DNA of 63,902 bases, the filler included, from Basidiobolus ranarum (Eukaryota): NCBI GenBank assembly GCA_040143965.1. It is 48 parts of 48 records of this genome, joined end to end, with 100 filler letters (N's around TTAATTAATTAA, not from the genome) between each part and the next. Parts side by side here need not be neighbours in the genome. Positions count along the whole stretch, not along the records: positions 30,737 to 31,970 come from JASJQH010005894.1; positions 32,071 to 33,303 come from JASJQH010005895.1; 46 more parts are not named here. The stretch is one strand, 5' to 3'. Position 1 is the stretch's first letter. The number at the start of each line of letters is the position of its first letter. Below are positions 2,406 to 59,712 of the stretch, piece by piece. A program made the position numbers and the translations under genes. A model generated the notes under the pieces. It searched no databases. It was not told where the DNA came from and was given only the letters and a program-made list of their open reading frames with translations.

Positions 2406-2577
2406 TGTTGAAGTTTATTGTCTTTATCATATTTGTTATCTCTATCTTTATATACCTAACTATTTAATATATCACATATAAGTTAGTTAACATTACTTAG
2501 TCAAATATCACTTAGCTGAAAATTGGAACATATATTATATATATATGTGAATAATGTGAGAATTAGCAATTCCATAT
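2406..2577 (+). repeat. LTR family A, 5' end
   Basis: Starts TGTTGAAGTTTATTG exactly as at 41189 and overlaps the sequence at 1-85. Confidence 0.85.
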
Positions 2578-2677
2578 NNNNNNNNNNNNNNNNNNNNNNN
2601 NNNNNNNNNNNNNNNNNNNNNTTAATTAATTAANNNNNNNNNNNNNNNNNNNNNNNNNNNNNNNNNNNNNNNNNNNN

Positions 2678-10702: not shown

Positions 10703-11441
10703 CAGGTGTTGGATCAACTTCTGCATTTAGCACTCTTCCAACCACTGTACCCAGTTCCATGATGAAATTAAGCTTTTTTGCCAGTATATCTGACTCTGGA
10801 AATGCAGATCTTTGTAATGGTGTGAAGAATTTGGTAAGTGTTACAGTAAAGCCTAATCTCCCTGGCTCCTTTGCTTTCCTAGGGTTTACTAACTTTCTAC
10901 TCCTTGAGTACTTCTTTAGCTGCTTTTCTTTCTTTTCCAAGTCAATAATTCCATACATTTTTGAGATGTTTCATAAATAGGCCTATACTAGTCCAATTAC
11001 CATTTGCTTGCAAAAACCCAGGATAAGCCACATGAATCAAGTCAAGAACCATCAGAGTAGTGCCTGATTTTTGGTTTTTCCACAATTGACTCAAATCCAG
11101 GCAATTTCAGGTTAGATTCCGCACAGTTTCCAAAATGTTAAACCACTCATCATCAGAACAAGTGAAGGCAGCTCTGATGTTCAGAGTCTTTTGGTTTGCT
11201 GGTTTTTCTATGAGATTTCTACTTTTGTGTGCCCAAGCAATTTTGGGTTTTTGTGTAGGCTTAATGGTCCAACACCTATTCTGCTCTGCTTGATTGTCAT
11301 GGTGACAATTGTTTGTATGGTGTGGAATTGATTGAAATCCCATATGAGAATGGATGGAGGGAGCAGCATGTTGCTGTAGCTCAAGTACAGCATTTTGAAG
11401 ATCTTGTATCATTATCAAGTGACTCTCTAACTGTTGACTAG
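10703..11441 (-). mobile_element. CMC element ORF2 fragment, target of a nested insertion
   Basis: Homology to other ORF2 copies ends abruptly at 11441. Confidence 0.85.
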
Positions 11442-11939
11442 CCCTAACAGAGATTTGAGGATTGTTATTGTAGGAAAACTGTCTCAATTTTAATCCATTT
11501 GGGATTCACCATTTACTTAATGTCATAAAATCATCAAGTTATATTTGACTTTAAACAATTTTTTCAGTTTCCGGAGTGAAATTTCAAGATCTTGCAAATT
11601 AGTTGTGCATGATTGGCTAAAATCTCACAGAACTATGGATCAACACATGTGTGAAAAACATAACTCAAATTTTACACAATTACCACTTGAACACTAATTT
11701 GTCACCTTCAAAATCCCTAGTCTCTTTGATATATTCTTCTGAATATTTTAATGGAGTTCTTTATACCCAAGGTTTAGCTCATACCCAACACAAGTTTGTA
11801 TCAACATCTCCATCAAAGCCCACCATCATATTAATGTTGCTGAATCAACATTCTTCCAGCTATCTGGTGGATACCCTGCAATATTGTGCCACTCTGTATT
11901 AAGTTCTTCCCAGATATCTGCATGGTCAACACCAGACTG
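11442..11939. mobile_element. CMC element left end (TIR CCCTAACAGAGAT) and ORF2 3' end
   Basis: Same start as 43451 and as the reverse complement ending at 56902. Confidence 0.88.
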
Positions 11940-13376: not shown

Positions 13377-14028
13377 GCATGTTAATATACTCTGGAGTCT
13401 CCTTAACCCATCACATTACATCCATCACTGATTTTGCTGATACATGGTTAATCAGATTAGCATACAGTAAGACTGACAATTTCACATAAAGCATCATTTC
13501 ACCACAGGTGCACTACTTTGGGAACTCCCAGAAAGTATAGCATGGGCCTAAAATCTCTAACCAATGTGAAAGATGCAGCAGGGGATGTATTGTATACCAG
13601 CATAGATGAAGTCTATTTTATTTAAACCTGTGTGAAAGTTTCACATATGCAATCAAAAAATCATTCCATATTTGCTGTATCTGTCTGATATCTGCCAATG
13701 TGAGTTCAAGCCATAAGAATAAATTAACAATATCCACAAACAACTCCCAATGTTGCCAATACTTATCAGGCAGAAATCTTTTCCAAATTCTACTTGAATA
13801 TATACATATCCAATATTTCCAGTCTTTGCATTTGAATAAACACCTAGATTAGTGCTGTTGATGGGAGTCCTGGAAAAATATGATGGTATCTTGATGTTTT
13901 CAAGCATTTTCCCAATTGATTCAAACTTTGAACCTATCCTGAATGGTTCATGTATATTGAATTTTCCTCTTTATAGCTGAGTAAGTAGTATTGCAATGTT
14001 GTTGAATAGAAAGTGTATAGTGCTTAAT
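13377..14028 (-). mobile_element. CMC transposase fragment, target of a nested insertion
   Basis: Homologous to 3395-3915 and 15016-15150. Confidence 0.88.
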
Positions 14029-14613
14029 CCCTAACAAAAATAAAATCAATTTGATCTGGATTGGTTCCACCTTTCTAAATCACAAACCATTAGAGAACCG
14101 TCACAATATTGGTGACTTGCATTCTGGCAGGGATTATGATGGCGTCATGACAGTTTCTCAACAGTATTACAATGGTATTCATACATGTTAAATATTGATC
14201 CACATATTTGGCAGGCATTATTAATTTGTGGCAATTTTTGCAAATTATAATTTTTGAATGGCAAATTTCTGGGTTTACTGTTGTAGGTATTGAAATTAAT
14301 ATGCATGCCTTTATTTAGATATTTCAGGTTTTGTATTCAAGCCATGATGAGAATCAAAGAATACAAGAATCTCATTGTTTTTAGTCTCTAAATATGCACA
14401 TACTTGCCTGATTAGACATAACTCAACAACATCAATATGCATAACCAGCAAACTAATGGTGGAAAAATTGCTTAACAACTGAAATTTTGAATAGCACTTA
14501 GACTTGGCAAATAGCTGAATCTGGTTACTGATCATAATGAGAATAAGCTTTTGGATTTTGGCAAATTTCCGTAAAGAATTCAGCCAATATATGATCTATA
14601 CTTGGGTAAGTTC
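14029..14613 (-). mobile_element. CMC element right end (TIR CCCTAACAAAAAT) and transposase C-terminus
   Basis: Same start as 48224 and 53092. Confidence 0.88.
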
Positions 14614-17385: not shown

Positions 17386-18621
17386 TTTGGCTCTCACCAG
17401 TGATATGAAAAATCTAAAATTATGTACTGTTTGCACAACATTGGCAATCACTGAATCTGGTAAATATTGTTCATATTTGGCTTACAAACTGTTGATTCCC
17501 CATCTTAAAGTTTTGATGAAATCACCCAAATATAGATCATTGATCCAACACCAAAGTACTCACCATAAAGCTGATAGTATTACCAAAATATTTGATATGA
17601 TATCACTACCAGAATCTGAAAAGCCAAGGTTTCTTTAAGAACACATATGATCCTGTGTTTGCATTGGCTCTGGATGGTTTCTCACTAAACATAGATACCG
17701 TTGGAAAGGCTTGCTGGCCAATAATTTGAATCAACTTAAATCTTCCTCCTTCTAAATGGTATAAGAGTAATAATATTTTGATACTGTCCATCATATCTAG
17801 ACCTAAATCACCAGTGCTTATGGATAGCATCTTAGAGCCTTTGATTGTGGAATTTGAACAGTTATCTAATAGGGTTCAGATGGGTGAATAATTTATTAAA
17901 GCTAATATCATTGTATATATTGGTGACACTCCTGCCATCAGTAAACTTGGAGGTTTTTGCAGGCACAATGCACTATCTTGCTGTGGATTTTGTCAAATCA
18001 ATGGAGTTTACTCTAATAGGCATACACATTACTACTTTCCAAATACAGCACTAATCATGGTGATTGTACCATCAAGAGCCTGGTCAGATTTCAACATGGT
18101 CATTGATATCAATTCACCAAATAGTCAGTCTAACCTCAAACTTGGTATTAGCCATAAGCCTAAGATTATATTGCTAAAGGGGATCAGCTGGATCCAGAGC
18201 TTCCCAATAGGCACTATACACTTACTATTCAATAACATTCCAATACTACTTACTCAGCTATGTAGTGGAAAATTCAATATGAATCAGCCATTTGAGATAG
18301 GATCAAAGTTTAAATTTATTGGGAAAATGCTTGAAAACATCAAGAAACCATCATATTTTACCAGGACTCCCATCAATATCCACTCATCTAGGCATTTATT
18401 CAAATGCAAAGACTGGAAGTATTGGATTTGCATATATTCAAGAAGAATTTTGAAAAGATTTCCGCCTGATAAGTATTGGCAACATGGGAGTTGTTTGTGG
18501 TTATTGTTAATATATTCTTACAGCATCAACTCACATTGGCAGATCTCAGGCAGATACAGCATCTGTGCAAAGAATTTGTAATTGAATATGAAAAACTTTA
18601 TTAGAGGTTTCAAGAAGATAG
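17386..18621 (+). mobile_element. CMC transposase core, decayed
   Basis: ALDGF, GDTPAISKLGGFCRHN and KCKDWKYW motifs. Confidence 0.9.
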
Positions 18622-18721: not shown

Positions 18722-19957
18722 TGCCTAAGTCCTTGAACAGTTTCCTTAACCACATAGCCTCCTTTGTTGTATGTGATGCTGCCATGTACTCTGCTTCAGT
18801 TGTTGAAAGTGCTATAGTGGGTTGTTTCTTGCTATTCTAAGATATGGCTGCTTCACTGTAGAGAAAGGTATATCCAGTGATAGATCTTCTGTCCTCAATA
18901 TCACGTCCCCAATCTGCATCACTAAACCCAATTAGATCCTTGTTCTTATAAAAACATGTGTATTTTATTCCCAGATCAATTGTCCCCTTCAAATAGCTGA
19001 AAATCTGCTTAACTGCTGCATAATGCTCAAATCCTGGGTTTTGCACATATTGGCTGACTACTCCAACTGCAAAAGAGATATCTGGCCGGGTTCCAGTCAT
19101 AGCATAGATCAAACTGCCTACCATAGATTGATAAGGGAACTCAGGGCCTTCCAATGATGTATTTGGAGCCATATTTGGCCAATTTTCATCATTTTGGATG
19201 GGATTTTTGACAAGTTTCACACCTGGATCCATGGGAGTTGCTACTGGCTTAAAATTCTCCATCCTGTAACGTCTGAGGATATCTGAGATGTATTTAGATT
19301 GATTCAGAGTGATAGATTTACTCAATAGATCTGTATGGAAGTGCTGACCTAAAGAATATGTAAGTTTACCTAAATTGGTCATCTTGAATGGGACTGATAG
19401 ATCTCTTTTGGTGTTCCTGAGAGCTTCATCATTACTGGTAGCTATAATCAGACCATCTACATTTAAGGCAGGTACCACATTACTGTCCTTATCTGTCTTA
19501 AAGTAGATCCCAAAATCCACCGTACCCTTTTGGAAATCAAGTGATTCCAAGTAAGTATCTATCTTAGTGTACCAGGCCCTGGGTGATTGTTTAAGTCCAT
19601 ATAGTGATTTTTGTAGCTTAAGCACATCCTCAGGGTGCTCAGGATTCACAAAACCATCTGGTTGATCCATGAATATATCTTCTTCCAAGTCCCCATTCAA
19701 AAAAGGAGTTTTGACATCTATTTGATGGAGTTTTAAGCTGTGTTTTGCCACCACTGCTAGTATGGTTCTGTTGGAATTCAACTTTGCTACAGGAGCAAAA
19801 GTTTCATTGTAGTCCACTCATTCCATTTGAAAGTATCCTTGAGCCACAAGTCTGGCTTTATATCTCTCTACAGATCCATCAGCTTGCTGCTTAACTTTAA
19901 ACACCCATATGCATGCAATTGATTTTTGGTTATCAGCTAACTTACCCAAAGTCCAAG
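18722..19957 (-). mobile_element. Ty1/Copia reverse transcriptase-RNase H
   Basis: YNETFAPVAK, QIDVKTPFLNG, KSLYGLKQSPRAW, degenerate YVDD (NVDG), TRPDISFAV, FSDADWG. Confidence 0.95.
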
Positions 19958-21393: not shown

Positions 21394-22070
21394 TGGCTCA
21401 AAGTAAATACTAAAAATGTCACTGGGTATTGTTCCCTGTGCGAAAAGAGTGTCAACGACGGTAGGAATAATGGATGAACTATCAGGTGATAATGTTCCAA
21501 GAGTCAAATCAGCTGGCCCTAAGCCTAATACACCATCAAATCCACTGAACCCTTGCGACTTAGAGGCAACTCCTATGGATTGCTTTTGAAGTACCAAATT
21601 TTGACCGATTGTCACCGTATCAGTGAACTCGGTTCCAGAGAATGAACCGCTATCATAACTAACCGAAACCGAGTTCGAGGTCTTGACAGAGGTACTTGTG
21701 GGAACGTAGGCTTTACCAGCGCCGATCCACGTATTAGCGGAGTTGGTGTCAATTAACACTTCATAGGACGTGGGAGGACTTCCAATGCCGATAGAAGTAG
21801 TATACTATTCAGATAAAGGAGGGATTAGTTTTAATTCAAACTTGTTTAAGCAAGACAATTGCTTACATGAGTGAGCATATTTGTAGCCGGGATATTTTCT
21901 ACTGCTCTAGGATTCAACCTTCTCCTATGATGGGTGTCGGGGACATAGACAATGGAGCGACGAATTGGTAGAGTATAAACACCATTACTGGAACAACCAT
22001 GAGGAATGACGACTCCAATCGTAGGATGAACAAGAGCCAAGGCTAAGACCAGGGCGATTAACTTTGCCAT
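21394..22070 (-). CDS. Secreted A1 aspartic protease, polyporopepsin-like (5' part; intron 21805-21866)
   Basis: Signal peptide MAKLIALVLALAL; GTAAGC..AG intron; YTTSIGIGSPPTSYEVLIDTNSANTWIG, FDGVLGLGP. Confidence 0.92.
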
Positions 22071-29402: not shown

Positions 29403-30636
29403 GTAGTGTGACACTACTGAGGGTGCTTTGTGGTGTTTGTGCGGCTTTTTGCTTGCCTTTACCTTTGGGGCTAATTTCAACACTTTGAAAAGTACCAGTT
29501 GAGGTTGGAGAGCTGTGAGTTTTATTTGCTGGTGTTTTGACTTGTTGAGAGGTGCCAGGTGTTGGATAAGACCTTTGTAATGGTGTGAAGAATTTGGTAA
29601 CTGGGACAGTTGAGCCTAAACTGACTGGCTCATGTACTTTTCCCTTGGGCTTACTATGTTCCTGCTCCTTCAGTACTTCTTTAGCTGCTTTTCTTTCTTT
29701 TTCAAGTTGATAATTCCATACATTTTTGACATGCTTCATGAATAGGCCTATACTACCCCAATTGCCATTTGCTTGCAAAAGCCCAGGATAAGCCACATGA
29801 AATAAGTCAAGAACCTTCAGAGGAACATCTGGTTTTTGGTTTTTCCACAATTGGCTCAAGTTCAGGTGATTTTGGGCAAGATTCCGCACATTTTCCAAGA
29901 TGTTGAACAACTCATCATTGGGGCAAGTGATGGCAGCTCTGACCTTCAGTGTCTTTTGGTTTGCTGGTTTTCTTATGATTTCTACTTTCATGTGCCCAAG
30001 CAATTTTGGGTTGTTGTGTAGGCTTAATGGGCCAACACACTTACTGCTCTGCTAGATTGTCATGGTGACATTTATATGTATGGTGTGGGATTGATTGATA
30101 TCTCATATGAGAATGGATGGAGGGAGCAGCATGTTGCTCTAGCTTAAGCTCAGCATTCTGAAGGTCTTGTATCATTGTTGAGTGACTCTGTAAATGTTGA
30201 CTACTTGCTTCCAAATGCGGCATTAATTTTGATATTGTGGTATTATTGCTTGTCATGTCCTGTATAGCAACTTCATAGTTTTTACTCATGATTGCCTGCA
30301 TATCATTACAGTGTTCTGCCTGCGTTTCCCTTGTTGTGATAATTCTATCCAAATTTCCTATGGAGGGTTTTTCAATAGTGGGCAAAGTAGCTTTTTTCGA
30401 AGTTCATGGTCTTGATGGTGTTTTGGTTGAACTTTCCTCAACTATTGATTTACTACATAATTGGTGGATTACAATCTCTTCACTTGCACTATTGCTAGAA
30501 AGTAACACATCTGGTAAATTGATTAATGCTTCATCATAACTTGATTAGTTTCTGGCATGTTAATACCTTCCAAAGTGGATAGTGGATTGCTAGACTGCTC
30601 ATCAATTAATTCCTCTGTTCTTGCTGGTTTTTTTCC
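29403..30636 (-). mobile_element. CMC element ORF2 with a 90-bp in-frame deletion
   Basis: Multi-copy ORF2; TPLQRS is joined directly to YPTP. Confidence 0.85.
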
Positions 30637-30736: not shown

Positions 30737-31703
30737 GAGATGTTTCATGAAGAGGCCTATACTAGCCCAATTGCCATTTGCTTGCAAAAACCCATGATAA
30801 GCAACATGAAAGAAGTCAAGAACCTTCAGAGTAATGCATGGTTTTTGGTTTTTCCATGATTGACTCAAATCCAGGTGATTTTGGGCCAGATTCCACACAT
30901 TTTGCAAAACGTTAAACCACTCATCATCAGAGCAAGTGATGGCAGCTCTGACATTCACAGTCTTTTGTTTTGCTGGCTTTCCTATGAGATTTCACTTTCA
31001 TGTGCTCAGGCAATTTTGGGTCATTGTGTAGGCTTAATTGTCCAAAACACATTATTTTCATGGTGATGTTCATATATATGGTGTAGGATTGATTGAAATC
31101 CCATATGAGAATAGATGGAGGGAGCAGCATGTTGCTGTAGCTTAAGTACAGCATTTTGAAGTTCTTGTATCATTGTTGAGTGACTCTCCAACTGTTGACT
31201 ACTTGCTTCCAGATTCTGCATTAATTGCAATATTGTGGTGTTATTGCTTGTCATGGCCTTTATGGCAACTTCATAGCTTTTACTTATAATTGCATACAAA
31301 TCATTATGGTGTTCTGCCTGCAACTCCCTTGTTGTAATAATCTATCCAAATTTTCTATGGAGGGTTGTGCAATAGTGGGCCATGTAGCCATTTTGAAAGT
31401 TGATGGTCTTGATGGTGATTTGGTTGAACTTTCTTGAACTATTGATTTACTACGTAATTGGCAGATTACAATCTCTTCACTTGCGCTATCACTGGAAAAG
31501 AACACATCTGGTAAATTGATTAATGCTTCATCATTACTTGAATTGGTTTCCAGCATGTTATTGCCTTCCAAAGTGGATAGTGGATTGCTATCCTGCTCAT
31601 TAATTAAGTCGTCTGTTCTTGCTGGTTTTTTTCCTTTTGTGCCAGCAGGCTTTGGCTTGGAAGCTAATTTTGATTTATATTTTGAATGCTTTTTGAATGG
31701 CAT
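30737..31703 (-). mobile_element. CMC element ORF2, N-terminal part with start codon
   Basis: MPFKKHSKYKSKLASKPKPAG (basic N-terminus) continuing into shared ORF2 sequence. Confidence 0.85.
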
Positions 31704-31915
31704 TGAAATTTTCAGATGGTAAACTTGGTGTAATGAAATTGCTTAGAGACAGCTTGTCATAAACCAAAATTGCCATCCATTACCACAGATATCTTGTAAA
31801 TCCCCTGATGAATCATCTGTGACATTGGCACAGAATCAGCTAATGATCTTGATGGGATATACCTAAAATACCATCCTTATTTAGGCGGCGTTCATTTTAC
31901 CACACTATCCTTCTC
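31704..31915. promoter_or_regulatory. Putative bidirectional promoter of the CMC element
   Basis: 212 bp between the ORF2 ATG (31703, minus) and the transposase ATG (31916, plus); partly repeated at 57055-57155. Confidence 0.65.
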
Positions 31916-31970
31916 ATGCCACCACATAAATGTTTAAAGAAGTGCTGCTTTTATTGTCACAAATTCTTGT
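31916..31970 (+). mobile_element. CMC transposase start (MPPHKCLKKCCFYCHKFL)
   Basis: 31884-31970 aligns with the reverse complement of 33215-33303, which leads into the transposase. Confidence 0.8.
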
Positions 31971-32070
31971 NNNNNNNNNNNNNNNNNNNNNNNNNNNNNN
32001 NNNNNNNNNNNNNNTTAATTAATTAANNNNNNNNNNNNNNNNNNNNNNNNNNNNNNNNNNNNNNNNNNNN

Positions 32071-33303
32071 CTAATACATACAATGCTATTAGCTTTAATA
32101 AAATACTCACCCATCTTAACCCCGTTAGATAACCATTCAAATTCCTCAATTAAAGGCTCCAAGAAGCTATCTATAAGCACTGGTGATTTAGGTCCAGATA
32201 TGATGGATAGTATCAAAATATTATGACTCTGATACCATTCAAAAGGAGGAAGATTTAAGTTGATTAAAATTATTGGCCAGCAAGCCTTTCCAACAGTACA
32301 TTTGCTTAGTAAGAAATCATCCAGAGCCAATACATGTGCATGATCATACATGTTCTCCAAGAAACCTTGACTTTTCAGATTCTGGTAGTAATATCCATCA
32401 AGTATGTTGGTAATACCATCAGCTTTATGGTGAGTACTTTGGTATTGATCAATGATCTATATTTGGATGATTTCATCAAAACTTTAAGAAGGGGAATCAA
32501 TGGTATGTAAGCCAAATATGAAGGATATTTACCTGATTCAGTGATTGCCAATTGTGTGCAAACAGTACATGACTTCAGGTTTTTCAGATCACCGGTGAAA
32601 GCCAAACAACCATTTGGACATGAAGGCAGTTGAATTATTGAAGGATTATAAGTCATACAATTGACAAGTGTTTTCCACTTGTACCAGGTCTGTGGCAAGC
32701 AACAGTTGCAAATCAACTGTGGTAAAAGTGTAAGAAAATCTATAATCACCTGGTTGCTAAGATTGTATTGAACTCTCCACTCCTCAATAATCAAAGCTGC
32801 CTCCTTTACAGTAAGTGTTATGAGTGGACTAATGCTTGCCAATAACAAGAACTCCGTAACAAAACCATTGTCTTCTTCTTCAACTTCTGATATACTACTG
32901 TTGGTACTGGAATAACCAAGGTCAACATCTAGCAGCAAGTTCTCAAAGTTGTCTGGATTACTGGTTTGACCAAAGTTGCATTTTGACCTACATCATTCTG
33001 GTCATATAACCGTGGTAACTCCATGGCATCTTGACTTTTGGCAGTGTTACCAAAACTTTGAGGCAAACTACAGTCAGTGGACTCAATGGGCAAAACTAAA
33101 GTTGATTTAGTACACTTATTACTGTTGTTATACACCAGGCTTTGTGCAGCTGGTGGCTTTGTACAGTGACCATGCTTGTGATTATTTTTTCTATGAAGCC
33201 TCCAGGTTTCATTGCACAAGTATTTGCAACAATAATAGCAGGGCTTCTTTAAATGTTTGTGTTGCAGGATGAGAAGGATATTGTAGAAAAAAGAACACCT
33301 CCC
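32071..33303 (-). mobile_element. CMC transposase N-terminal half
   Basis: SCPNGCLAF..CTVC Cys cluster, YIPLIP, LALDDF, NLPP. Confidence 0.9.
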
Positions 33304-36069: not shown

Positions 36070-37093
36070 GGAGGCAGCAATTGAAGTGCTAGTAATTCCA
36101 GTTCCCCATTTAGCGGTCTTTTCAGCACCGATGATATAACGAAGTACTTGAAGTCTGAGGTACTCAGAAGAAGAAAGAGGAGCACCTTCGAATGCCAAAG
36201 CGAGGGCACCGTGTTCTCCAGAGAACTCTAAACGAGATTCACCACCATAGTATTTTGAGGAGGCTGATTTTGCCTTAACACCTTGGTCAAGTTTACCGAA
36301 GTGTTGTTGAACAAGACCATCAAGTTGTTCTTTCTCGACTCCGGTACCAACAACACTAATATTTGATCCAACGTAACTTTGGTTCACGAATTGCATTAAA
36401 TCTTCGTAAGTGGCTTTAGATCCAGCCTTGGAGTAAAGAGAGTTACCAAGGCCATTACGGAAGGCAACACTATGAAGAGCCTCGAAGACCTTTATCTCTG
36501 GGTTAGACAAAGATTGCTTGGCTTGTTCTTGAACAAATTTCTTGACATCAAGGTACTCGTATTTGGCAAAATTGGTTTGAGAAATAACATCGGAAAGAAG
36601 CTGTACAAAATAGGGGCTAAGATGGTAGAACGATTAAGACCAGTTAATATCTGACATAATATATATTCGTTACTTACAGATCTTGAGAGAGGAACTCAGC
36701 AGAATATACAAGACTTTCGCGGCCTTGGGATACACTTAGTTGCGCACCTTGAAGCTCAGCTTCACGAGTAATGCGGAAAGCAGAGCGTTCACGAGTATTC
36801 TAATAATTACAAACATAAACCTCGATTCAGACGAAGCATTTCGATTTATATCTTCAATATTATACCTTAAAAGCAAAAGATTTCAAGACTTGGGAAACAC
36901 CAAAGTTGTGAGGGTTCTCGAAACGAGAACCAGCACCAACAACAACTGACAAAGAAGAAACGGGAGAGCTCTCCTCGGAAGCGGCAATACGTACACCATT
37001 AGAAGCAACGGATGTTGCTACAGTGTATGAAGCTCTTTGGATCAAAGGAGCAGTAACAGAAGTAGCTTTCTTTAAGAGAGTGGTTCTGAGCAT
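36070..37093 (-). CDS. QCR2: Cytochrome bc1 core subunit 2, partial (exons 37093-36866, 36799-36678, 36616-36070)
   Basis: Mitochondrial presequence, VGAGSRFE, NTRERSAFRITREAELQG, LHSVAFRNGLGNSLY, YYGGESR; GT..AG introns restore the frame. Confidence 0.93.
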
Positions 37094-37401: not shown

Positions 37402-38633
37402 ATATTGGCTTCATAGATGTTTTTAGGAGTTGGGCTGATGATGAGTTGCATACTTTGCAGGTTGGCCAATATTAACTAGGAGGTGGAGTTTGCTTGAATG
37501 TGATAATCTTCTTCTGCCAATTGATTACTGGTTTGTGCTGCATGAGCCATGTGATATTAAGGATGATTGGGTGGTGAGGTGAAGAAATGATATTAAAGCT
37601 ATTTCTTCTTGATGAGCAGTGGACATCAGTGTCATAATGATTGTCTCATGTGTTACAGCATCTGATGATAGCAGCCTTCCATTAATTACTTCTATGAGAA
37701 CTGAATTAGATTTCTTGATTGTTGGGATAGAGTGGGATTTCACAAAGGTAGAGTCAATATAATAGTAGGCAGCACCTGAAACAAGAAGTGCAGTTGTTTT
37801 TATTGACTTGGAATTTGGTAGCAGGAGTGCAATGGGCAGCTTTAGTGATTTGTATGACTGCAGAGATTGCAATCTATGGTGAAGTTACATTTTTGAAAAT
37901 GTTTTGCCCAACTGCATGCCTATTGTTTCAGCTGGGCATTGAGGTTTTCCAAATGTTGGGAAGAGTTCCCTTCTACTTGAATATTGTTGATCTTAAATTC
38001 ATGATTCTTTTTTGGACAGGTTCTTGCTACATGTTCAGGAGCTCCACAATAGAAGCATATATTCACTTGTTGGTATCAATATTTCTCCTCAGGGCTAAGC
38101 TTTCTGAAGCAAGTTCCAACAATTAGCATTGGGTCATCATGTTTGAGCTGTATTTTGTGTTTGCTGGAAAAGAGGTCTGAAAGTAGATGATGAAGGAGAG
38201 AAGAAAGGAGCCATATTTCTGGTTGTTGTCTGTCAAACAACCGGTTGTCACATTAAACTGCCTGGTGGATAGCATCAGTCAAGGTCACTGGGCCAGCCAT
38301 AGTGAGTAAAAGATCCTTAATATTTTCTCGGAGTCCATATTGGAATTGGTTGATAAGGGCAGATTCTCCACAATTGAGATCACAGGCAAGAAGGTGGAAT
38401 TCTGCAGCATAAGTTGATGCAGGTTTTGTCCCATGTATAAGTGCATGGATCTTGGTGGCTGAAGTTCTTTCCTTATCTGCATTTCCAAATGTGGCTTCCA
38501 ATTCATCAACAAAGGCAAGGAAGTTTGATACAAGTGGTGATTGACTTTCCATCAAAGGAGCAAACCAAGCTAGAGCTGTTCCTGATAATAGTGTTCCCAC
38601 TAGGCCTACTTTTGTTTGGTCAGAGAGGGAGCA
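37402..38633 (-). mobile_element. Ty3/Gypsy gag, zinc knuckle and protease, decayed
   Basis: LLSGTALAWF, FQYGL, CFYCGAPEH..C, ALLVSGA (degenerate DSGA). Confidence 0.9.
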
Positions 38634-40065: not shown

Positions 40066-41188
40066 TACTAAAATATTGAAGATTTTTGTGATCACAAGAA
40101 ACTGTGATTTTATGATTTGCTCCATCCAAGTATTGTTGCCATTGCTCAAACGCAGCAATAATTGCTGAAAGTTCCTTGTCATAGATGTCATAGTTGATTT
40201 CTGTGGCAGAGAACTTTCTTGAGTAAAAGGCAACAGGGTGCAGTAAGTTGTCATCATCAAACTGTGATAGTACTGCCCCTAGAGCAAAGTCGGATGCATC
40301 AGTTTCAACAATAAATGGCTTGTCTAGCTTGGGATGTGCCAGGATTGGTGCTGAGGTAAAAGCACTCTTTAAAGTTACAAATGCTTGCTGATAAGATGGG
40401 TTCCAGTCAAATGGGAGTTCTTTCTTTGTGAGGTTTGTTAATGGAGCAGATATTTTGGAATAGTTCTTGACAAACCGTTGGTAAAAGTTTGCAAATCCAA
40501 GGAAAGATTGGACATCTTTCACATTCTTGGGAATATCCCAAGACAGAACAGATTCAACCTTCTTAGGGTCCATGGAGATGCCTGATGGGCTGATGTTATA
40601 TCCAAGGAATTCAACTTGAGCTTGATCAAATTCACATTTCTCAAGTTTAGCATAGAGCCCAGAGGTTTTCAACTTTTCTAGGACTTGGGAAACATGAATA
40701 TTATGTTCTTCTTGAGAGCTTGAGAAGATCAAGATATTGTCAAGGTAGATTACCACAAATTGGTCAAGATACTCTCTGAAGATATCATTCATCATGTGTT
40801 GAAAGACTGCAGGGGCATTAGTAAGTCCAAATGGCATGACATTGTATTCAAAGTGTCCATATTGAGTTCAAAAAGCAGGTTTCCATTGGTTTCCAGGTTT
40901 GATTCTTACAAGATTGTGAGCACCTCTTCAATCAATCTTTGTAAATACCTTGGCTGAAGCAAACTGATCCAAGAGTGAGTTGATTAATGGCAAGGGGACC
41001 AATTTTTGACTGTAATGCTATTTAGGCCTTGATAATCAACACAGAAATGGAGGGATCCATACATTTTCTTAACAAATAAGATTGGACAGCCTGCTGGGGA
41101 CTTTGAGGGTTGGATAAATCCTTTCTCCAGATTTTCTGTAATATACTCTTTCAGAATCTTGAGTTCTGGTTGGGTCAGCCCATATATA
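40066..41188 (-). mobile_element. Ty3/Gypsy RT-RNase H; interrupted at 41189 by LTR-A
   Basis: [56 protein letters not shown]. Confidence 0.96.
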
Positions 41189-43450: not shown

Positions 43451-43958
43451 CCCTAACAGAAATTTGAGGATTGTTATTGTAGGTAAACTGTCACATTTTA
43501 ATCCATTTGAGATTGACCATTTACTTACCGTCATAAAATTGTCAAGTTAGATTTGATTTTATTCAATTTTTTCAGTTTCAGGAGTGAAACTTCAAGATCT
43601 TGCAAAATAGTTGCAAATGATTGGCTAAAATCTCAGAGAACTATGGATCAACAGATGTGCAAAAAACGTAACTCAAATTTTACACAATTACCACTGTAAA
43701 GCTAATTTGTCACCTTCAAAATCCCTGCTCTCTTTGATATATTCTCCTGAATATTTTTATAGAGTTCTTCATACCCAAGGTTTAGCTCATACCCATCACA
43801 AGTTTGTATCAATATCTCCATCAAAGCCCACCATTGTATTAACATTACTGAATCAACATTCTTCCAGCTATCTGGCAGATACCCTGCAATATTGTGCCAC
43901 TCTGTATTAAGTTCTTCCCAGATATCTGCACGGTCAACACCAGACTGAATGTCAAGTT
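43451..43958. mobile_element. CMC element left end (TIR CCCTAACAGAAAT) inserted in Copia gag
   Basis: Same start as 11442. Confidence 0.88.
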
Positions 43959-46720: not shown

Positions 46721-47951
46721 CTTTTACCACAGTTGATTGGCAACTGTTGCTTGCCACAGACCTGGTACAAGTGGAAAACACTTGTCAATCATATGACTTA
46801 TAATCCTTCAGTAATTAAACTGCCTTCATGTTGAAATGGTTGTTTGGCTTTCACCGGTGATCTGCAAAACTTGAAGTCATGTACTGTTTGCACACAATTG
46901 GCAATCAATGAATCAGATAAATATTGTTCATATTTGGCTTACATACCATTGATTCCCCATCTTAAAGTCTTGATGAAATCACCAAAATATAGATTGTTGA
47001 TCCAATACTGAAGTACTCACTGTAAAGCTGATGGCATTACCAATATACTTGATGGATATCACTACCAGAATCCAAAAAGTTAAGGTTTCTTTGAGAACAT
47101 ATATGATCATGCATTTGCATTGGCTCTGGATGGTTTCTCACCAAACAAATACACCTTTGGAAAAGCTTGCTGGCTAATAATTATAATCAACTTAATTCAT
47201 CCTCCTTCTGAACAGTGTAAGAGTCATAATATTTTGATACCATCCATCATATCTGGACCTCAATCACCAGTGCTTACAGATAGCTTCTTGGAGCCTTTGA
47301 TTGCAGAATTTGAATGTTTATCTAATGGGATTCAGATGGGTGAATAGCATATTAAAGCTAATATCATTGTATATTGGTGACACTCCTGCCATCAGTAAAC
47401 TTGGAGGTTTTTGTTGGCTCAATTCACTATCTTGCTGTAGATTTTGTCAAATCAAGGGAGTTGATTCTAACAGGCATATGCATTACTACTATCCAAATAC
47501 AACACTAAACTTCATGATTTTACCATCAAGAGCCTGGTCAGATTTCAACATGATCACTGATATCAATTCACCAAATAGTCAGTCTAACATCAAACTTGGT
47601 ATTAGCCGTAAGCCTAAGATTATATTGCTAAAGGGGATCAGCTGGTACCAGAGCTCCCCATTAGGCACTATGCACTTACTATTCAACAACATTTGGATAC
47701 TACTTACTCAGCTATATAGTGGAAAATTCAATATGAATGAGCCATTTGAGATAGGATCAAAGTTTGAATCAATTGGGAAAATGCTTGAAAATGTCAAGAT
47801 ACCATCATATTTTACCAGGACTCCCATCAATATCCACTCATCTAGGCGTTTATTCAAATGCAAAGACTGGAAGTATTGGATTTGTATATATTCAAGTAGA
47901 ATTTTGAAACAATTTTTGCCTGATAAGTATTGGCAACATTGGGAGTTGTTT
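46721..47951 (+). mobile_element. CMC transposase core, decayed
   Basis: ALDGFSP, IGDTPAISKLGGF..CCRFCQIKGV, PLGTMHLLFNN. Confidence 0.92.
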
Positions 47952-48223: not shown

Positions 48224-49282
48224 CCCTAACAAAAATAAAATTAATTTGATCCGGATCAGATCCACCCTCTGAAATAGCAAAACTGTCAGAGAACCATCAC
48301 AATATGGTTGGCTTGCATTCTGCCAGCGATTTTGATAGTGTGATGGCAGCTTCTTGACGGTATCTTAACAGTATTCATACATGTTAAAATATAGATCCTG
48401 AAATTTGGCATGCGTTATTCAATATCCAGCAATTTTTACAAAAATATAATTTTGAATGGCAAATTACTGGGTTCACTGCTGTAGGAATCCAAATTGATAT
48501 GCATGCCTTTATTCAGATATTTTAGGCTTTGTATTCCAGCAATAATGAGAAACAAAAAATACAAGAGTCTTGTTGTGTTTAGTCTCTACATATGCACCTA
48601 CTTGACTGATGAGACATAACTCAACAACACCAATATGCCTTACCAGCAAACTAATAGTGGAAAAATTGCTAAACATATAAAATGTTGAATAGCACTGACA
48701 CTTGGCAAATAGCTGACTCTTGTTACTGTTCACAATGAGAATAAGATCTTGGATTTTGGCAAATTTCTGTAAAGAATTCAGCCAATATATCCCCAACTTG
48801 CAGTTAACAAATATCCTGCCACAAGTAGATGTGTCATTGCTTGGATAGATTACCCCATGGTTTAAATGATAATATTGTGTATCTCCATCAATCTCAACCA
48901 AGAAGTCTGTCTTGCAGCCTTCCTAAAAATACCATCAGATTATCACACAAGCAAATTAGTCCAATTATAAAGGTGCTTACTCTGTGTCCATGGATTGGGC
49001 TTTGTTGCTGTTATTGTGCTCAAGCAATGTGAAAACCCATGAGCACATTAAAAAGAGCCCTTTGTTGGCAGGTTAATATGCTCTGGAGTCTCCTTAACCC
49101 ATTGCATTACATCCATCACTGATTTTGCTGATAAATTGTTTATCAGATTAGCATACAGTAATACTGATGATTTCACATGGAGCCTCATTTCACTGCAGGT
49201 GTGCTCCATTGGGAACTCCCAGAATGTATAGCAAGGGCCTATAATCTCTAAGCATTGTGAAAGATGCATCAGGGAATATATT
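48224..49282 (-). mobile_element. CMC element right end (TIR CCCTAACAAAAAT) and transposase C-terminus
   Basis: Junction defined by the empty site at ~38130 (GGGTC|ATC); WEFPMEH motif. Confidence 0.92.
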
Positions 49283-49382: not shown

Positions 49383-50061
49383 TAGTATAGGTGCATTGGC
49401 TAATGATTCAAGGGTCTACGGGAAATATAGCCACGCCATAATCATTGAACACAACCAAATGATAGAGTTGGTAATCAACAATTGGGATGGTGATAGTCAC
49501 CCATTTCATCTACATGGACATCAGTTCCAAGTGATGGAGCGTAGCGAGGAGAATGCGGGTGGATACGACTACACCAACAAGCCGGTTAAAGAGCAGGCCA
49601 ATCCCATACGTAGAGATACTGTTCAAGTACCTGCTAACGGTTATGTGGTTATCAGATTTCGCGCTGATAATCCCGGAATATGGCCATTTCATTGTCACAT
49701 TGAATGGCATTTCGAGGCTGGATTGGCTGTAACCATTATTGAAGCACCACAACAAATTCAAGAGCGCATAAAAATCCCCCAACAACTCTTCGATAATTGC
49801 AACGTGTACGGGATTCAAACCACTGGAAATGCAGCCGGTAAACAAGGATTGGACTTGAGTGGCTATTTGGCTGGGCCGAATCCGTTACCTGGTAAATTTA
49901 CCGCCAAAGGGATCTGGGCAATGGTGGGATGTATTTTATCAGCGCTGCTCGGAATAGGCACATTGATATGGTTTTCCAAAGACGAAGCTGCCCCAGTTGA
50001 CACTAGTACGATCGAACATGAAAAAAAGGGAGCTACTGTCGAAGAAGTTCAGGGATCCTAA
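49383..50061 (+). CDS. FET3: Fet3-like membrane-anchored multicopper oxidase, C-terminal fragment
   Basis: HPFHLHGH, RRDT, ADNPGIWPFHCHIEWH and a C-terminal TM helix (GIWAMVGCILSALLGIGTLIWF). Confidence 0.88.
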
Positions 50062-52042: not shown

Positions 52043-53091
52043 TAATGACCAAAAATTGGTCTAAATTTGATCCAAAAGGTAAGAAATGCATATTTCTGGG
52101 TTATTGTACTCAAACTAAGGCCTACAGTCTCTATGATACCAAAATTTCCAAGATAATCAAGTCCTGGGATGATTTTGTATAATGAAAATGAAATATTTGC
52201 ACCCAAAATGTTTTCAGATGATTACAGAAATCAATTTTGTCCTGATCCAATCATTCAAACTAATTCATATCAAAATAATGATGAAAATAGCATTCCTGTG
52301 AACCCTTCAACCAAATTTTGGCCTACTGAAGTGCCCAATACAATGCCAGAAATTTTATTACCGTTATTCTAAACCAGGAAATCAAATTGGATCAGAAATA
52401 GCTCTGTTTACTACATCAATGAGTCCCAAAATTGGGCCTATGCCTGCACAGCTCAAATACATGAACCCCAGACTGTAAAAGAGGCCCTAAATGGCTCTCA
52501 CACTACATTTTGCAGTTCTGCAATGGCTGATGAGTACCAGGCTTTGACTAATAATCAAACTTAGGTTTTAACCAACTTACCTGATGATAGAAAATTAATT
52601 GGCTGCCTGTGGGTGTTTGAAGTTAAGTACAACTCTGATGGCAATATAGAAAGGTACAGGGCTAGACTAGTAGCCAAAGGCTATTCCTAAGCACCAGAAA
52701 TAGATTATACAGAAACTCTTGCTCCTGTAGCAAAGTTTAATTTAATTAGATTTATTTTGGTAATATCAGCTAAATATCGGTTTATTAAACATCAAATGGA
52801 TGTTAAAGCTGCTTTTTTGAATAGTGAGCTTGCCAAAGAAATCTATATGGACCAGTCAGATAGATTTGTGGACCTAGAAGATCCTAAAAGAGTTTGCAGA
52901 CTCCTGAAAACACTCTGTGGCTTAAAACAATCTCCAAGAGCTTGGAACAGCAAGACAGATGCTTTTTTGGAAATGCTCAAACTTCAAAAGAGTAATGCTG
53001 ACTATAGTATCTACTCAAGGCCAGATAAGAAAAACCCAGGTCTATTAGACTGAGATGTAGATGACTTTAATATAGCACCCAATGACTTGAA
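52043..53091 (+). mobile_element. Ty1/Copia RT, decayed; interrupted just after the VDD motif
   Basis: RYRARLVAKG, HQMDVKAAFLNS, LKQSPRAW. Confidence 0.92.
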
Positions 53092-53272
53092 CCTTAAAAA
53101 AAATAAATTTGATTTGATCCAGATTAGATCCACCCTCCAAAATGGCAAAACTATCAGAGAACCATCACAATATTAGTGGCTTGCATTCTGCCTGGGATTT
53201 TGATGGTGTGATGGCAGTTTCTTGACAGTATTTTGATGGTATTCATTCATGTTAAAATATTGGACTTGTTCC
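53092..53272. mobile_element. CMC element right end (degenerate TIR)
   Basis: Aligns with 48224-48400 and 14029-14200. Confidence 0.85.
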
Positions 53273-53372: not shown

Positions 53373-54602
53373 TCTGTATGCAAGGCCACCTCAGAAGGGC
53401 TAAAATTCAATTTTGATAAGTCAGGATGCACCATCACTGATCAAAATGGGAATTATTTAGCTTTGGGAGAAAAGGATCAGAACTTATACAAACTTACATA
53501 TAATCCAAGAGGTTTATGTGTAAATATAAGCTATTCCAATCAAGAAACTATTCAATTATGGCATAAGAGGTTTGGCCATATTGGATATGATTATTTGAGC
53601 AAAATAATCAAAAATTGCCAAATTTCTGGAACTCAAATTAACACCCCCAACCAAAATGGAAATTTGTGAGGGTTGTATATATGGAAAACAAGCCAGGCAA
53701 CCATTCAAGAGCTCTGGTTTAATCAAATCTGTCAAAAAATTGGATCTAATTCATTCAGATTTGTGTGGACCTATGCAAAATTTATCTTTAGGCAGAAAAA
53801 TATATTTAATCACATTTATTGATGATTATACAAGATATACTTGGGTCTACTTTATGGAAAGAAAAAAAGAAGCTCTCTCTATCTTTAGAGATTATAAAAC
53901 ACTTGTGGAGACTGAAACTGGAACTAAAATCAATAAATTACAAATTGATAATGGTGGAGAATATACTTCAACACTATTTGAACACTTTTGCAAAGTTCAT
54001 AGAATTAAGCAAGAAACTACTGGCCCCTATTCACCTCAACAAAATGAGTTGCTGAAAGAGCTAACATGACTATGAAAGAAATGGCAAGATCTATGATAAA
54101 TGCACAATATTTATCTCATAACTTTTGGGTGGAATATGTTGCCACAGCTGTATATCTAAAGAATAGAAGCTTCACTAGAAGTCTGTCTAACTCTACACCA
54201 TATCAAGCTTGGTTTTCAGTTAAACCTTATGTAAAACATTTGAGGATCTTTGGATGCATTGCTTATGTCAAAATTATGATCAAAAATTGGTCTAAATTTG
54301 ATCCAAAAAGTGAGAAATACATATTTTTGGGTTATTGTACTCAAACTAAGGCCTACAGACTCTATGACACCAAAATTTTTGAATCAATCAAGTCCAGGGA
54401 AGTTTTGTTCTATGAAAGTGAAAATATTTCACCTAAAATGAGCTCAGATGATGAAAAAAATCAATTTTCTCCTGATCCAATCTTTCAAATTGATCAAACC
54501 AAAACAATGAAAAAAATGGCATTCCTGTGGACCCTTTGACCTACATTTTGCCTACTGAAGTGCCCAATACAATGCCAGAAGTTGTAGTACCTTAATCCCA
54601 AA
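53373..54602 (+). mobile_element. Ty1/Copia integrase (HHCC and core)
   Basis: LWHKRFGH, CEGCIYGK, LIHSDLCGP, DNGGEY, YSPQQN. Confidence 0.95.
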
Positions 54603-56032: not shown

Positions 56033-56902
56033 TATGTAGCTTATCAATAGTTGAGCAAAGTTCAAAGGAAACATAGTCAAGAGCATCAACTTTCAAAATG
56101 GCTACTTAGCCAAGCATTGAAGACCACCTAGTGGAAAATTTGGATGGAATTATTACAACAAGGGAATCTCAGGCAGAACAGTATAATGATATGTATGCAA
56201 GGATAAGTAAAAAACTACAAAGCTGCTATACAGGCCATGAAAAGCAATAACTCTGCAATATTGCAATTAATGCAGTGTTCGGAAGCTACAAGGACATATC
56301 AAAATGGTAAAAGTGCCTGAGAAGGATTTTCTAGAGTTGGACGGAAAACATGTGATGCAAGTGTGCAGAAAGTGGCTTTGGAAGAAGTACATTCAACTTG
56401 ACATTTAGTCTGGTATTGACCATGCAGTATCTGGGAAGAACTTAGAACAGAGTGGCACAATATTGCAGGGTAACTGCCAGATAGCTGGAAGAATCCTGAT
56501 CCAGCAACATTAATACAATGATGGGCTTAGTTGGAGATATTGATACAAACTTGTGCTGGATATGGGCTAAACCTTGGGAGTGAAGAATTCTGCAACAATA
56601 ATTAGGCAAATATATTAAAGTAACCAGGGATTTCAAGGGGAACCAATTAGTGTTCAAGTGGTTAAGGTGTAAAATTTGAGTTATATTTTTTGCACATTTG
56701 TTGAATCACAGTTCTGTGAGCTTGTAGCCAACCTTGGTCAGCTATTTTGGCAGCTCTTGATATTTCACTCCTGAAACTGAAAAAATTGATTACTTTAAAA
56801 TCTAACTTGACATTTTTAAGACAATAAGTAAACTGCCAATCCAAAGTGGATTAATACTGTGACAGGTTTCCAAAAATAACAATCCTCAAATTTCTGTTAG
56901 GG
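56033..56902 (+). mobile_element. CMC ORF2 deletion derivative ending in the left TIR (ATTTCTGTTAGGG)
   Basis: ~0.9 kb of ORF2 is missing at ~56285; the terminus is the reverse complement of 43451. Confidence 0.85.
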
Positions 56903-57155
56903 GCATGTTTATGCCTTTCAAAAGTGGATAGTGGATTGTTAGGCTGCTCATCAATTGAGTCTTCTGTTCTTGCTGGTTTTTTTTCTTTTGTGCCAGTAGA
57001 TTTTAGCTTGTAAGCCAATTTTCATTTTAATTTTGAATTCTTTTTGAATGGCCTTGATATATTGAGATAGTAAACTTGATGTAGTGAAATTGCTTAGAAA
57101 TTACTTATAACAAGCCAAAATTGCCATCCACTACCAAAAATTTCTTTTAAATCTC
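56903..57155 (-). mobile_element. CMC ORF2 N-terminus and part of the intergenic region (insertion target)
   Basis: Aligns with 31553-31805. Confidence 0.8.
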
Positions 57156-57361
57156 CTCTGTTAGCTATGGAATCGAAGGCCTTAGTAACTACCGTAGCTT
57201 ACTTTGTAAAGAGTTTCGTCCCAAATGGATGTTTGGAAGCAAGTGATTTTCAGAGGCTCTGNNNNNNNNNNNNNNNNNNNNNNNNNNNNNNNNNNNNNNN
57301 NNNNNTTAATTAATTAANNNNNNNNNNNNNNNNNNNNNNNNNNNNNNNNNNNNNNNNNNNN

Positions 57362-58590
57362 TAAGCCAAATATAAACAATATTGATCAGATTCAATGATT
57401 GCTAATTGTGTGCAAACAGCCCATGACTCTAGATTTTTTGACCATATTGGAGTGAATTTTCAAGATGTTGCAGAACAGTTGCGCATGATTGGCCAGAATC
57501 TCAGAAACCTGTGGATCAACATATGTGCAAAAATGTAACTCAAGTTTGGCACATTTGCCACTTGAATGCTAATTTGTCACCTTTGAAAACTTTAGTTTCT
57601 TTGATATATTCTTCTGAATATTTTTAAAGAGTTCTTCATGCCAAAGGTTCAGCTTATATCCAACACAAGTTTGTATCAATATCTCCATCAAAGCTTACCA
57701 TTGAAGTAATACTGCTGAATGAATATTTTTCAAGCCATCTGGTGGATACCCTGCAACTCTGTGCCACTCTGAATCAAGTTCTTCCCATATATATGCATGC
57801 TGAACAATACCTTAGCAGATTGTTATTGTAGGAAGGCCATCACAATTTTAATACTTTTGAAATGACTGTTTACTTGCTATCTTAAAATTGTCAATTTAGA
57901 TTTCATTTTATTCAATATTTTCAGTTTCCAGAGGTAACTTTGAAGATCTCATAAAGTAGTTGCACATGATTGGCTACAATGTCAGAAAACTATGGATCAA
58001 CACATGTGCAAAGAATGTAACTCAAATATTGAACATTTACCACTTGAATGCTAATTTATCACCTTTGAAATCTCTAGATTTTTCAATGTATTCTCTTATA
58101 TATTTTCATAGAGCTCTTCAAACCCAAGGTTTAGCTCATATCTAACACAAGTTTATATTAATATCTCCATCAAAGCTCACCATCCTATTAACATTGCTGA
58201 ATCAACATTTTTCCAGCTATCTGGCAGATACCCTGCCATATTGTGCCACTCTGTATCAAGTTCTTCCCAGATTTCTGCATGGGCAACACTAGACTGAATA
58301 TCAAGTTGAATGTTCTTCTTACGAAGCCACTTTCTGCAAACATGCACTGCAGCTTTTCCTTCATAATTTTGCAAACACTCCTCAAGCACTTTAACTATCT
58401 TTATATGTCAATATAGTGTGATACTAATGAGAGAGCTCTGCAGTATTTGTGTGGCTCTTTGCTGCCTTTAATTTTGGGGCTAATTTCAACACATAGAAAA
58501 GTACCAGTTGAGGTTGGAGAGCCGTGAGTTTTATTTGCTGGTGTTGTGGCTTGTTGTGAGGTGCCAGGTTTTGGATAAACTCTCAAACTT
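57362..58590 (-). mobile_element. Mosaic of CMC pieces: transposase scrap and two tandem left-end/ORF2 segments
   Basis: 57362-57445 transposase; 57446-57809 ORF2 3' end; a new degenerate left end starts at ~57810. Confidence 0.8.
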
Positions 58591-58799: not shown

Positions 58800-59712
58800 C
58801 CGTAAATTCAACTAGAGGCCAGAGTTGTGTCCAATTTTCCTGCTTATAATTGATGGTGCATTGCAAATATAGTTCCAAAACTTGATTGACTCTTTCTGTT
58901 TGGCCAACAGATTGGGGATGGAAAGCAGTGGAGAGATTGACAGAGATACCCAAGGTATGGAGGCAACATTTCCAGAATTAGGAAGCAAACCAAGGTCCTT
59001 GGTAAGAGATGATAGTTTCAGGGAGTCCATGTAGGTGGAAGATGTTTTAAGTTACCAATTCTGCTGTTTGTTATGCATCAATTGACTAGTTGCAGGACAC
59101 AAAGTGGGCCATCTTTGTTAGACAGTCAACAAGTATTTGAATTGAATCATATTTGGCAGACAAGGGTAGATCAGTTATGAAATCCAGGGATATGGATTTC
59201 CACTGCTGATCAGGAATTGGAAGTGGCTGTAGGAGGCCTTAGGGCTGATGTGTTTGAGTCTTCACTCAAGCACATGTATCACAGGTAGAAACAAAAGTCT
59301 TGACAAATTCAAACATTTTGGGCCACCAATAATCCCTGGATGCCAACATATATGATTTGGCAACACCAAAGTGTCCTGCTAGAGGTGAGTCATGTCTTTC
59401 CTGCATGATTTTGAGTCTGGGAGTGTTGTCTGGAATGTAAGGGTACTTCTTATAAAACAAGAGATCATTGATGATAGAGAAAAGGTGGTACAAGCTCAAG
59501 CTTGAGAGGTCTTTGGGTGATTCCTGGGCTTTCTTGATTCATACTACCAATGGGACTTCAGATTGAAGTTTGTGGATGTCTTCATGGAATGTGCTTGTAC
59601 TAGGCAGAGAAAGGGCAGTTGCACTAATTTGAAGTTGGTGGGGCTTCAGTAGAAAATATTTTGATAGCCAAATGCCCCATCCCCTTCTTTAGGCTGATAT
59701 TCTGCTCTACAT
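58800..59712 (-). mobile_element. Ty3/Gypsy integrase, decayed
   Basis: [39 protein letters not shown]; new sequence starting TGTAGT at 59713. Confidence 0.92.

Follow-up and report, generated by a model that had tools for sequence, protein, structure and literature searches.

Decayed copies of an abundant fungal CMC transposon in Basidiobolus ranarum, probably with a transposase and an orphan second gene arranged head to head

Here we describe a family of DNA transposons from the fungus Basidiobolus ranarum (assembly GCA_040143965.1), a member of the CMC (CACTA/EnSpm-Mirage-Chapaev) superfamily in which a transposase gene and a second gene, ORF2 (open reading frame 2), probably lie head to head on one element. 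The whole stretch of DNA analysed, hereafter the window, is a length-sorted slice of this fragmented assembly. It comprises 63,902 bases in 48 contigs of 1227-1239 base pairs (bp) each, with GC contents of 32-43%, joined by N/TTAATTAATTAA spacers. Two of these contigs, contig 24 (30737-31970) and contig 25 (32071-33303), are central to the argument. Positions are those of the window unless given as local to a contig or as element positions, the latter being set with the transposase reading rightward.

Both genes have their 5′ ends in contig 24. An ATG at 31703 on the minus strand opens ORF2 (MPFKKHSKYK...), the 5′ two thirds of which occupy 30737-31703, broken into several frames and matching contigs 23 and 13 at 85%. 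On the plus strand, an ATG at 31916 opens MPPHKCLKKCCFYCHKFL, the first 18 codons of the transposase (31916-31970), before the frame runs off the contig. The two start codons are separated by 212 bp (31704-31915), a spacer that we infer to be a putative promoter for both genes. The segment carrying the rightward frame (contig 24 local 1148-1234) aligns with the 5′ end of the transposase in contig 25 (local 1232-1146, the reverse complement of 33216-33302) over 87 bp at 78.2% identity, with an E value of 1.95e-14 in a search against the window's contigs. Contig 25 (32071-33303, minus strand) supplies the N-terminal third of the transposase, including the start of its PF02992 domain; it contains frameshifts, and its ATG has changed to ATC. 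The original prediction had given these two starts, this gap and an alignment of these two segments, and all were confirmed. A motif resembling a terminal inverted repeat (TIR), sought with up to 3 mismatches, was found nowhere in contig 24, which argues that no element boundary lies between the two genes there.

The ends of the element are marked by the motif CCCTAACARAAAT, which occurs five times in the window with at most 1 mismatch, against 0.34 occurrences expected; five or more occurrences appeared in 0 of 100 shuffles. A sixth terminus, CCTTAAAAAAAAT at 53092, is a degenerate right end with 2 mismatches (53092-53272, contig 40, minus strand). These six termini are of two kinds only, three left and three right, and five of the six have different flanks. 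The left CCCTAACAGAAAT and right CCCTAACAAAAAT form a terminal inverted repeat of 13 bp that agrees at 12 of 13 positions. All six ends start with CCCTA or CCTTA, and CCCTA equals CACTA at four of five positions.

Left termini are present in contig 33 (local 724), contig 9 (local 740) and, reversed, contig 43 (local 870). The left end in contig 33 (43451-43958, plus strand) begins with the TIR CCCTAACAGAAAT at 43451-43463, continues through ~250 bp of non-coding sequence and reaches the ORF2 C-terminus on the minus strand (43705-43956); it is inserted beside a copia gag. That in contig 9 (11442-11939, plus strand) begins with CCCTAACAGAGAT and adjoins ORF2-type sequence of another copy (10703-11441). 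Contig 43 holds the left end of a deletion derivative (56043-56902, minus strand; TIR at 56890-56902), in which the left-end region is joined to mid-ORF2, next to the copy that hosts it (56903-57157, plus strand), which carries the ORF2 5′ end and the first 103 bp of the spacer. Right termini, at about element position 5182, are present in contigs 11, 37 and 40. In contig 37 (48224-49282, minus strand), the TIR CCCTAACAAAAAT at 48224-48236 is followed by 288 bp of non-coding sequence and by the transposase C-terminus (48512-48922 onward). The right end in contig 11 (14029-14613, minus strand; TIR at 14029-14041) adjoins transposase-type sequence of another copy (13377-14028). Left ends thus run into the 3′ end of ORF2 and right ends into the 3′ end of the transposase. 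Across the window, ORF2 points to the left terminus in five contigs (5, 9, 33, 43 and 44) and the transposase to the right terminus in contigs 12, 37 and 11.

Tiled together, the pieces yield an element of ~5182 bp with the order CCCTAACAGAAAT end, ORF2 leftward, 212-bp gap, transposase rightward, CCCTAACAAAAAT end. The tiling path leads from a left-end region of ~617 bp through contigs 5/44 and 13/23 to contig 24 (element 1027-2260), and then from contig 25 reversed (2173-3405) through contigs 36, 14 and 3 to contig 12 (3907-5142). ORF2 starts at ~1993 and stops ~250 bp from the left terminus (contigs 5 and 33), for ~580 amino acids (aa), while the transposase starts at ~2206 and stops 288 bp from the right terminus (contig 37), for ~896 aa. 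All these sizes are approximate because the tiles come from different copies, 76-91% identical and differing by insertions and deletions. They nevertheless bear out the earlier estimates of ~5.2 kb, ~580 aa and ~900 aa, and the TIRs and the outward course of each gene towards its own end were likewise as predicted. The claim that the element is reconstructable held in part: a tiling is possible, but the copies are decayed and non-identical, and none is intact.

The transposase was identified by profile. Among 73 open frames of at least 90 aa from the window that were scanned against Pfam, those of contig 3 (50.1 bits) and contig 25 (43.8 bits) exceed the gathering cut-off of 28.6 for PF02992 (Transposase_21, tnp2), while contig 1 scores 24.3 bits, below it. 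The profile check thus upheld the original assignment to CMC/EnSpm. An outside protein of 698 aa, P0010, from an ENA assembly (longest contig 5233 bp), scores 60.3 bits and shares 84% identity with the piece from contig 3; it also matches PF06869 (DUF1258) more weakly, at 40.4 bits against a cut-off of 33.1. When placed on the window by tblastn, P0010 is collinear over contig 25 (reverse complement), then contigs 36/14/3, then contigs 12/11/37, which confirms the interior of the tiling and indicates no introns over 698 aa. The pieces concerned include the middle part of the gene in contigs 36 (46721-47951, plus strand) and 14 (17386-18621, plus strand), both placed by the tiling and the P0010 alignment, the catalytic part in contig 3 (2678-3915, plus strand; PF02992 at 2678-3169), and the C-terminal part in contig 12 (14714-15949, plus strand), which stops ~40 bp before the right terminus.

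The catalytic pattern of EnSpm transposases is D, D, C(2)C, H(3-4)H, E (PMC12730594). P0010 satisfies this order with the motifs LALD260GF, GD344TPA, C363-x2-C366, H585-x3-H589 and FPME609R, the D, D and E being assigned by motif reading rather than by alignment to a characterised enzyme. As judged from profile and motifs, the placement of the predicted transposase in the CMC superfamily is sound. Searches with P0010 returned 588 pattern matches but no relatives among metagenome contigs, and 75 pattern matches but no relatives among viral contigs. One further transposase piece, in contig 1 (289-1239, minus strand), is cut at local 289 by another repeat (window 1-291), which is common to contigs 6, 18, 2 and 21 at 93-99% and represents a younger repeat family.

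ORF2 was tiled over contigs 24, 23, 13, 5 and 33. Its central part lies in contig 13 (16050-17285, minus strand) and contig 23 (29403-30636, minus strand), and its C-terminal half in contig 5 (5354-6591, minus strand), which connects the left-end region to the central domain. Contig 23 has the longest uninterrupted piece (29404-30051, 216 aa), and an exhaustive HMMER search with it through 1.84 billion representative proteins returned nine matches. Of these, six are short fragments, 67-86% identical and probably derived from the same species or a close one, while P0006 and P0009 look like low-complexity or chance matches. The ninth, P0003 (299 aa, from a contig of 1793 bp), is a distant homologue with 35% identity over 158 aa (E 3e-22) that spans the coiled region and the conserved central domain of ORF2. 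Because ORF2 is conserved at the protein level in P0003, it can be read as coding. A search with P0003 in turn found itself only, with no other relatives at similar length.

ORF2 pieces and P0003 match no Pfam family at E ≤0.01 beyond chance level, including the TnpA-type families PF03004 and PF03017. PDB sequences gave no match to ORF2 either (best E values 0.2 and 0.4), and metagenome contigs gave 249 pattern matches to an ORF2 alignment but no relatives. AlphaFold models of ORF2 are all-helical and unreliable: the central domain has a mean predicted local distance difference test (pLDDT) score of 42, and the C-terminal domain one of 56. The nearest Atlas clusters, a weak lead, are unnamed Basidiomycota proteins. 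By these comparisons ORF2 is a real but orphan coding sequence, as had been proposed. CACTA elements as a rule carry a second, poorly conserved gene (PMC4158355, PMC8978399), and for this reason ORF2 may, by analogy, encode an accessory transposition protein. The lack of subterminal repeat arrays, described below, argues against simple TnpA-like binding by ORF2.

The family is abundant and its copies are old. A BLASTN search of the tile set against all 48 contigs found family sequence in 18 of them, exactly the number first reported, covering 19,018 of ~59,200 contig bases (~32%). Eight contigs are mainly ORF2-side and eight mainly transposase-side. Matches lie at ~79-91% in 16 of the 18; in contig 40 the match is confined to the terminal 169 bp, and contig 2 matches at 76%. 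The piece in contig 2 (1991-2410, local 652-1071) resembles the right subterminal and transposase 3′ regions of contigs 37, 11 and 12, and probably represents a diverged sister subfamily.

Each copy seen has frameshifts or stops, and pairwise divergence between copies is ~10-20%, with transitions and transversions at ~1.1-1.9 : 1. Substitutions favour no codon position, whether in ORF2, the transposase or non-coding controls, a pattern that speaks neither for nor against coding. The copies have drifted neutrally since insertion. The ratio of observed to expected CpG is 0.08 in 15 family contigs vs 0.28 in the other 33. Such loss is the mark expected of methylated cytosines, and looks like methylation-driven decay.

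Rearrangement has also shaped these copies. The copy inserted in contig 43 is without element positions ~618-1496; the difference is a deletion, not an insertion elsewhere, because the missing part lies within a coiled region that is continuous in P0003. Contig 44 (57362-58590, minus strand) carries a 77-bp inverted transposase fragment (equal to contig 25 local 438-514), a partial tandem duplicate of the left end (positions 132-490, then 19-498) and the ORF2 C-terminal region. Outside the window, the proteins P0001 and P0005, ORF2 fragments from other assemblies, have segments in swapped or duplicated order; for P0001, the RKAAKEV...PLQR block precedes the PANQKTLNV block. Rearranged copies are therefore widespread beyond the window. 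Three of the six termini adjoin DNA of the same family: in contig 9, an ORF2 region followed by a left end; in contig 11, a right end followed by a transposase region; and in contig 43, a left end within the ORF2 5′ region, in opposite orientation. Self-targeting was considered as a cause of these flanks and rejected, being unneeded when the family makes up ~32% of window bases. The insertion site in contig 9 (after GACTAG; 11433-11454) and the endpoint of the 880-bp deletion in contig 43 (56278-56295) lie at most 3 bp apart in ORF2. This coincidence could be a hotspot or the trace of linked events.

Several lines of evidence point to a single element with divergent genes, an arrangement that we consider probable. 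The direct evidence, the contig 24 junction, is thin, and the indirect evidence is the stronger. Since each gene reads outward to its own end, the two must stand head to head if they lie on one element. The presence of two kinds of end among six termini speaks for one element, as two elements would need four, and the equal numbers of ORF2-side and transposase-side contigs count in the same direction. Further evidence comes from P0007, an outside protein of 100 aa that reads through antisense transposase sequence (contig 25 local 498-572, E 4e-8) and then through ORF2 in sense (contig 13 local 385-161, E 1e-29). The ORF2 part begins at most 2 residues after the transposase part, leaving no room for a terminus. 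P0007 would correspond to the proposed layout with element positions ~985-2833 deleted, matching it in order and orientation.

A number of observations weigh against this arrangement. The junction with both 5′ ends is present only in contig 24 within the window, and the overlap that links it to contig 25 is short (87 bp) and just 78% identical. No outside protein of similar length was found for the 124-aa transposase N-terminus of contig 25, so this link is without confirmation from outside proteins. Of the two contigs extending upstream of the ORF2 start, contig 24 alone has the junction; in contig 43, the match to contig 24 local 817-1070 (83.5% identity) runs through the ORF2 start and 103 bp upstream, after which the sequence diverges in a 104-bp tail that has no match beyond chance among the window's contigs. 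The original prediction had held that a junction unique to one contig would tell against a divergent pair, and this came about by half: in the window the junction is unique to contig 24, with contig 43 parting from it 103 bp on. A lone junction could itself be a rearrangement, as rearranged copies are frequent (contigs 43 and 44, P0001). No contig has both ends, and neither a target-site duplication nor a full copy was seen. Subterminal repeat arrays, to which accessory proteins of plant CACTA elements bind, were not found by k-mer counts and a repeat search of the left 300 bp and the right 337 bp, where only isolated two-copy matches occur, although weak arrays could have vanished from copies so decayed. 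Finally, codon-position rates are flat in both genes, and selection on ORF2 is visible only through its distant homologue P0003.

An alternative is that ORF2 and the transposase belong to two separate elements (or ORF2 to a non-autonomous relative), with contig 24 a one-off join produced by nested insertion, rearrangement or assembly chimera. The single junction, the departure of contig 43 at 103 bp upstream of ORF2, and the 77 bp between that divergence point and the contig 25 match (contig 24 local 1071-1147; 31807-31883), which match nothing else in the window, all suit this explanation, as do the existence of rearranged copies (contig 44, P0001) and the three termini in contigs 9, 11 and 43 that adjoin same-family sequence. 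Same-family flanks are, however, expected from abundance alone (19,018 of ~59,200 bases), and a joined pair should leave at least one terminus between the genes, whereas contig 24 has none at up to 3 mismatches. Two elements would also be expected to show four kinds of end; seeing two in six termini has a ~1.6% chance if the kinds are equally common. A chance join must further have put the two 5′ ends 212 bp apart in the sole orientation that fits the ends, and P0007, from another assembly, joins both gene regions in the same order and orientation. Two separate elements are consequently an unlikely explanation. Far less probable again, indeed barely credible, is a normal layout that is co-directional, contig 24 being an inverted copy. 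Maize En/Spm, which makes TnpA and TnpD from one transcription unit, offers a precedent, and inverted fragments do occur in contigs 43 and 44. Yet the five contigs named above all have ORF2 running toward the left terminus, and the three listed with them have the transposase running toward the right; with one gene at each end and both pointing outward, a co-directional layout is impossible. The two-gene divergent family of the original prediction is thus favoured by the orientations of the ends, by P0007 and by the absence of an internal terminus, and held back by having one direct junction, that of contig 24.

Taken as a whole, the observations are likely explained by old, inactivated copies of one abundant fungal CMC DNA transposon of ~5.2 kb with two outward genes. 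Under this explanation, two intronless-looking genes would start 212 bp apart and read outward, with the spacer driving both. The transposase, a DDE (aspartate, aspartate, glutamate) enzyme with PF02992, would cut at the inverted repeats, so that the element would move by cut-and-paste. ORF2, predicted to combine a basic N-terminus with a helical or coiled region, a conserved domain in the centre and a helical one at the C-terminus, would be an accessory protein encoded by the element, taking the part of the second protein in plant CACTA elements. The present copies would be dead, as suggested by their frameshifts and stops, their even substitutions over codon positions and their nearly complete loss of CpG.

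The part played by ORF2 is where this explanation is most open to a competing one. On a single element, ORF2 could instead be a passenger, a captured or de novo gene without a role in transposition, and the spacer would then be no shared promoter. ORF2 belongs to no Pfam family, has no PDB sequence match better than E 0.2 and a single distant homologue in the set of 1.84 billion representative proteins, and no subterminal repeat arrays were found that it could bind. Fungal DNA transposons are also known to acquire extra genes, for instance TET/JBP and alpha-kinase genes (PMC12730594). Against a passenger stand the share of the element that ORF2 occupies (one third), its frequency, which equals that of the transposase, its protein-level conservation in the diverged homologue P0003, and the general presence in CACTA elements of a second protein whose sequence is poorly conserved (PMC4158355, PMC8978399). 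On balance we regard a passenger role as doubtful, though a good deal less so than the two-element explanation.

More tentatively, we speculate that the family could represent a fungal CMC lineage with CCC termini, in which two outward genes and one 212-bp bidirectional promoter replace the single unit of En/Spm. ORF2 would then found a protein family with two helical domains, a coiled coil and a basic tail, would count P0003 among its relatives in Basidiomycota, and would act as a stand-in for TnpA without subterminal arrays. This proposal is possible rather than probable, and ranks slightly ahead of the passenger.

The window also contains other repeats and a few host genes. Copia-type retrotransposon pieces occur in contigs 15, 16, 18, 30, 32, 33, 34, 40 and 41 (e.g. 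18840-19817, 52691-53050 and 53373-54536), with the Pfam families RVT_2, rve, gag_pre-integrs, Retrotran_gag_2 and SH3_retrovirus. Gypsy/Ty3-type pieces lie in contigs 4, 29, 31 and 45 (e.g. 40067-40867, 4147-4461, 38256-38633 and 59269-59538), with RVT_1 together with RNase H, Integrase_H2C2 and Retrotrans_gag. Fragments of likely host genes comprise a Fet3-like multicopper oxidase resembling fungal Fet3/FetC ferroxidases (49384-50058, plus strand) and, on the minus strand, an aspartyl protease (21394-21804), an M16 peptidase (36070-36633) and an LSM protein (62287-62574).

If the layout is true, it adds a well-defined and very abundant family to the thinly described CMC transposons of fungi. 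Divergent gene pairs inside fungal DNA transposons have already been described, so the family would refine the catalogue without changing the picture. Its ends, gene map and deletion forms should aid the annotation of a repeat-rich fungal genome. The putative accessory protein encoded by the orphan ORF2 is a candidate for end-binding, and the near-total loss of CpG from the copies points to methylation-driven decay.

Plant CACTA elements (maize En/Spm, Tam1, CAC1 and Caspar) are similar in several respects, sharing the PF02992 (tnp2) transposase, short terminal inverted repeats and the common occurrence of internal-deletion derivatives. Maize En/Spm produces TnpA and TnpD from one co-directional transcription unit by alternative splicing, whereas here the predicted genes, as read from the DNA alone, lie on opposite strands with separate starts. 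Unlike plant CACTA elements, the family has termini in CCCTA rather than CACTA (nor do they take the form CAC..GTG), an ORF2 without a TnpA-type Pfam domain, and a transposase that appears to lack introns across 698 aa or more. Subterminal arrays of direct and inverted repeats, each 10-20 bp long, were not found in the decayed copies studied here. A further likeness is the second, poorly conserved gene beside the transposase (PMC4158355, PMC8978399).

Closer parallels come from fungi. PF02992 is the diagnostic domain for fungal CMC elements (PMC5751038, Muszewska 2017), and CMC/EnSpm elements carrying it have been recorded in fungi that include Basidiomycota and Mucoromycota (PMC5751038). CACTA is among the TIR superfamilies of rust fungi (PMC12210899). 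Kojima (2025) described rust-fungus EnSpm families with CAC..GTG termini, 3-bp duplications and TET/JBP genes, as well as IS3EU elements of rust fungi, multi-gene DNA transposons with genes in opposite orientation (PMC12730594). The present family resembles fungal EnSpm/CMC families in its fungal host, its PF02992 domain and its C(2)C and H(3)H motifs. It differs from Kojima's EnSpm families, with their CAC..GTG ends and TET/JBP genes, in having CCC..GGG ends and the orphan ORF2. The Mirage, Chapaev and Plavaka branches have a related DDE transposase, in keeping with the match of P0010 to PF06869, and to our knowledge are mostly single-gene elements. In literature searches that covered the main texts of articles, no CACTA element was described as having a divergent transposase/ORF2 pair. 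Judged against this literature, the family is new, a decayed addition to a known superfamily whose second gene is an orphan, and it may equal a family already deposited in Repbase or Dfam. Because of its CCCTA termini and its lack of the single transcription unit of En/Spm, the element as predicted is best filed as a member of the CMC superfamily and not as CACTA in the narrow sense.

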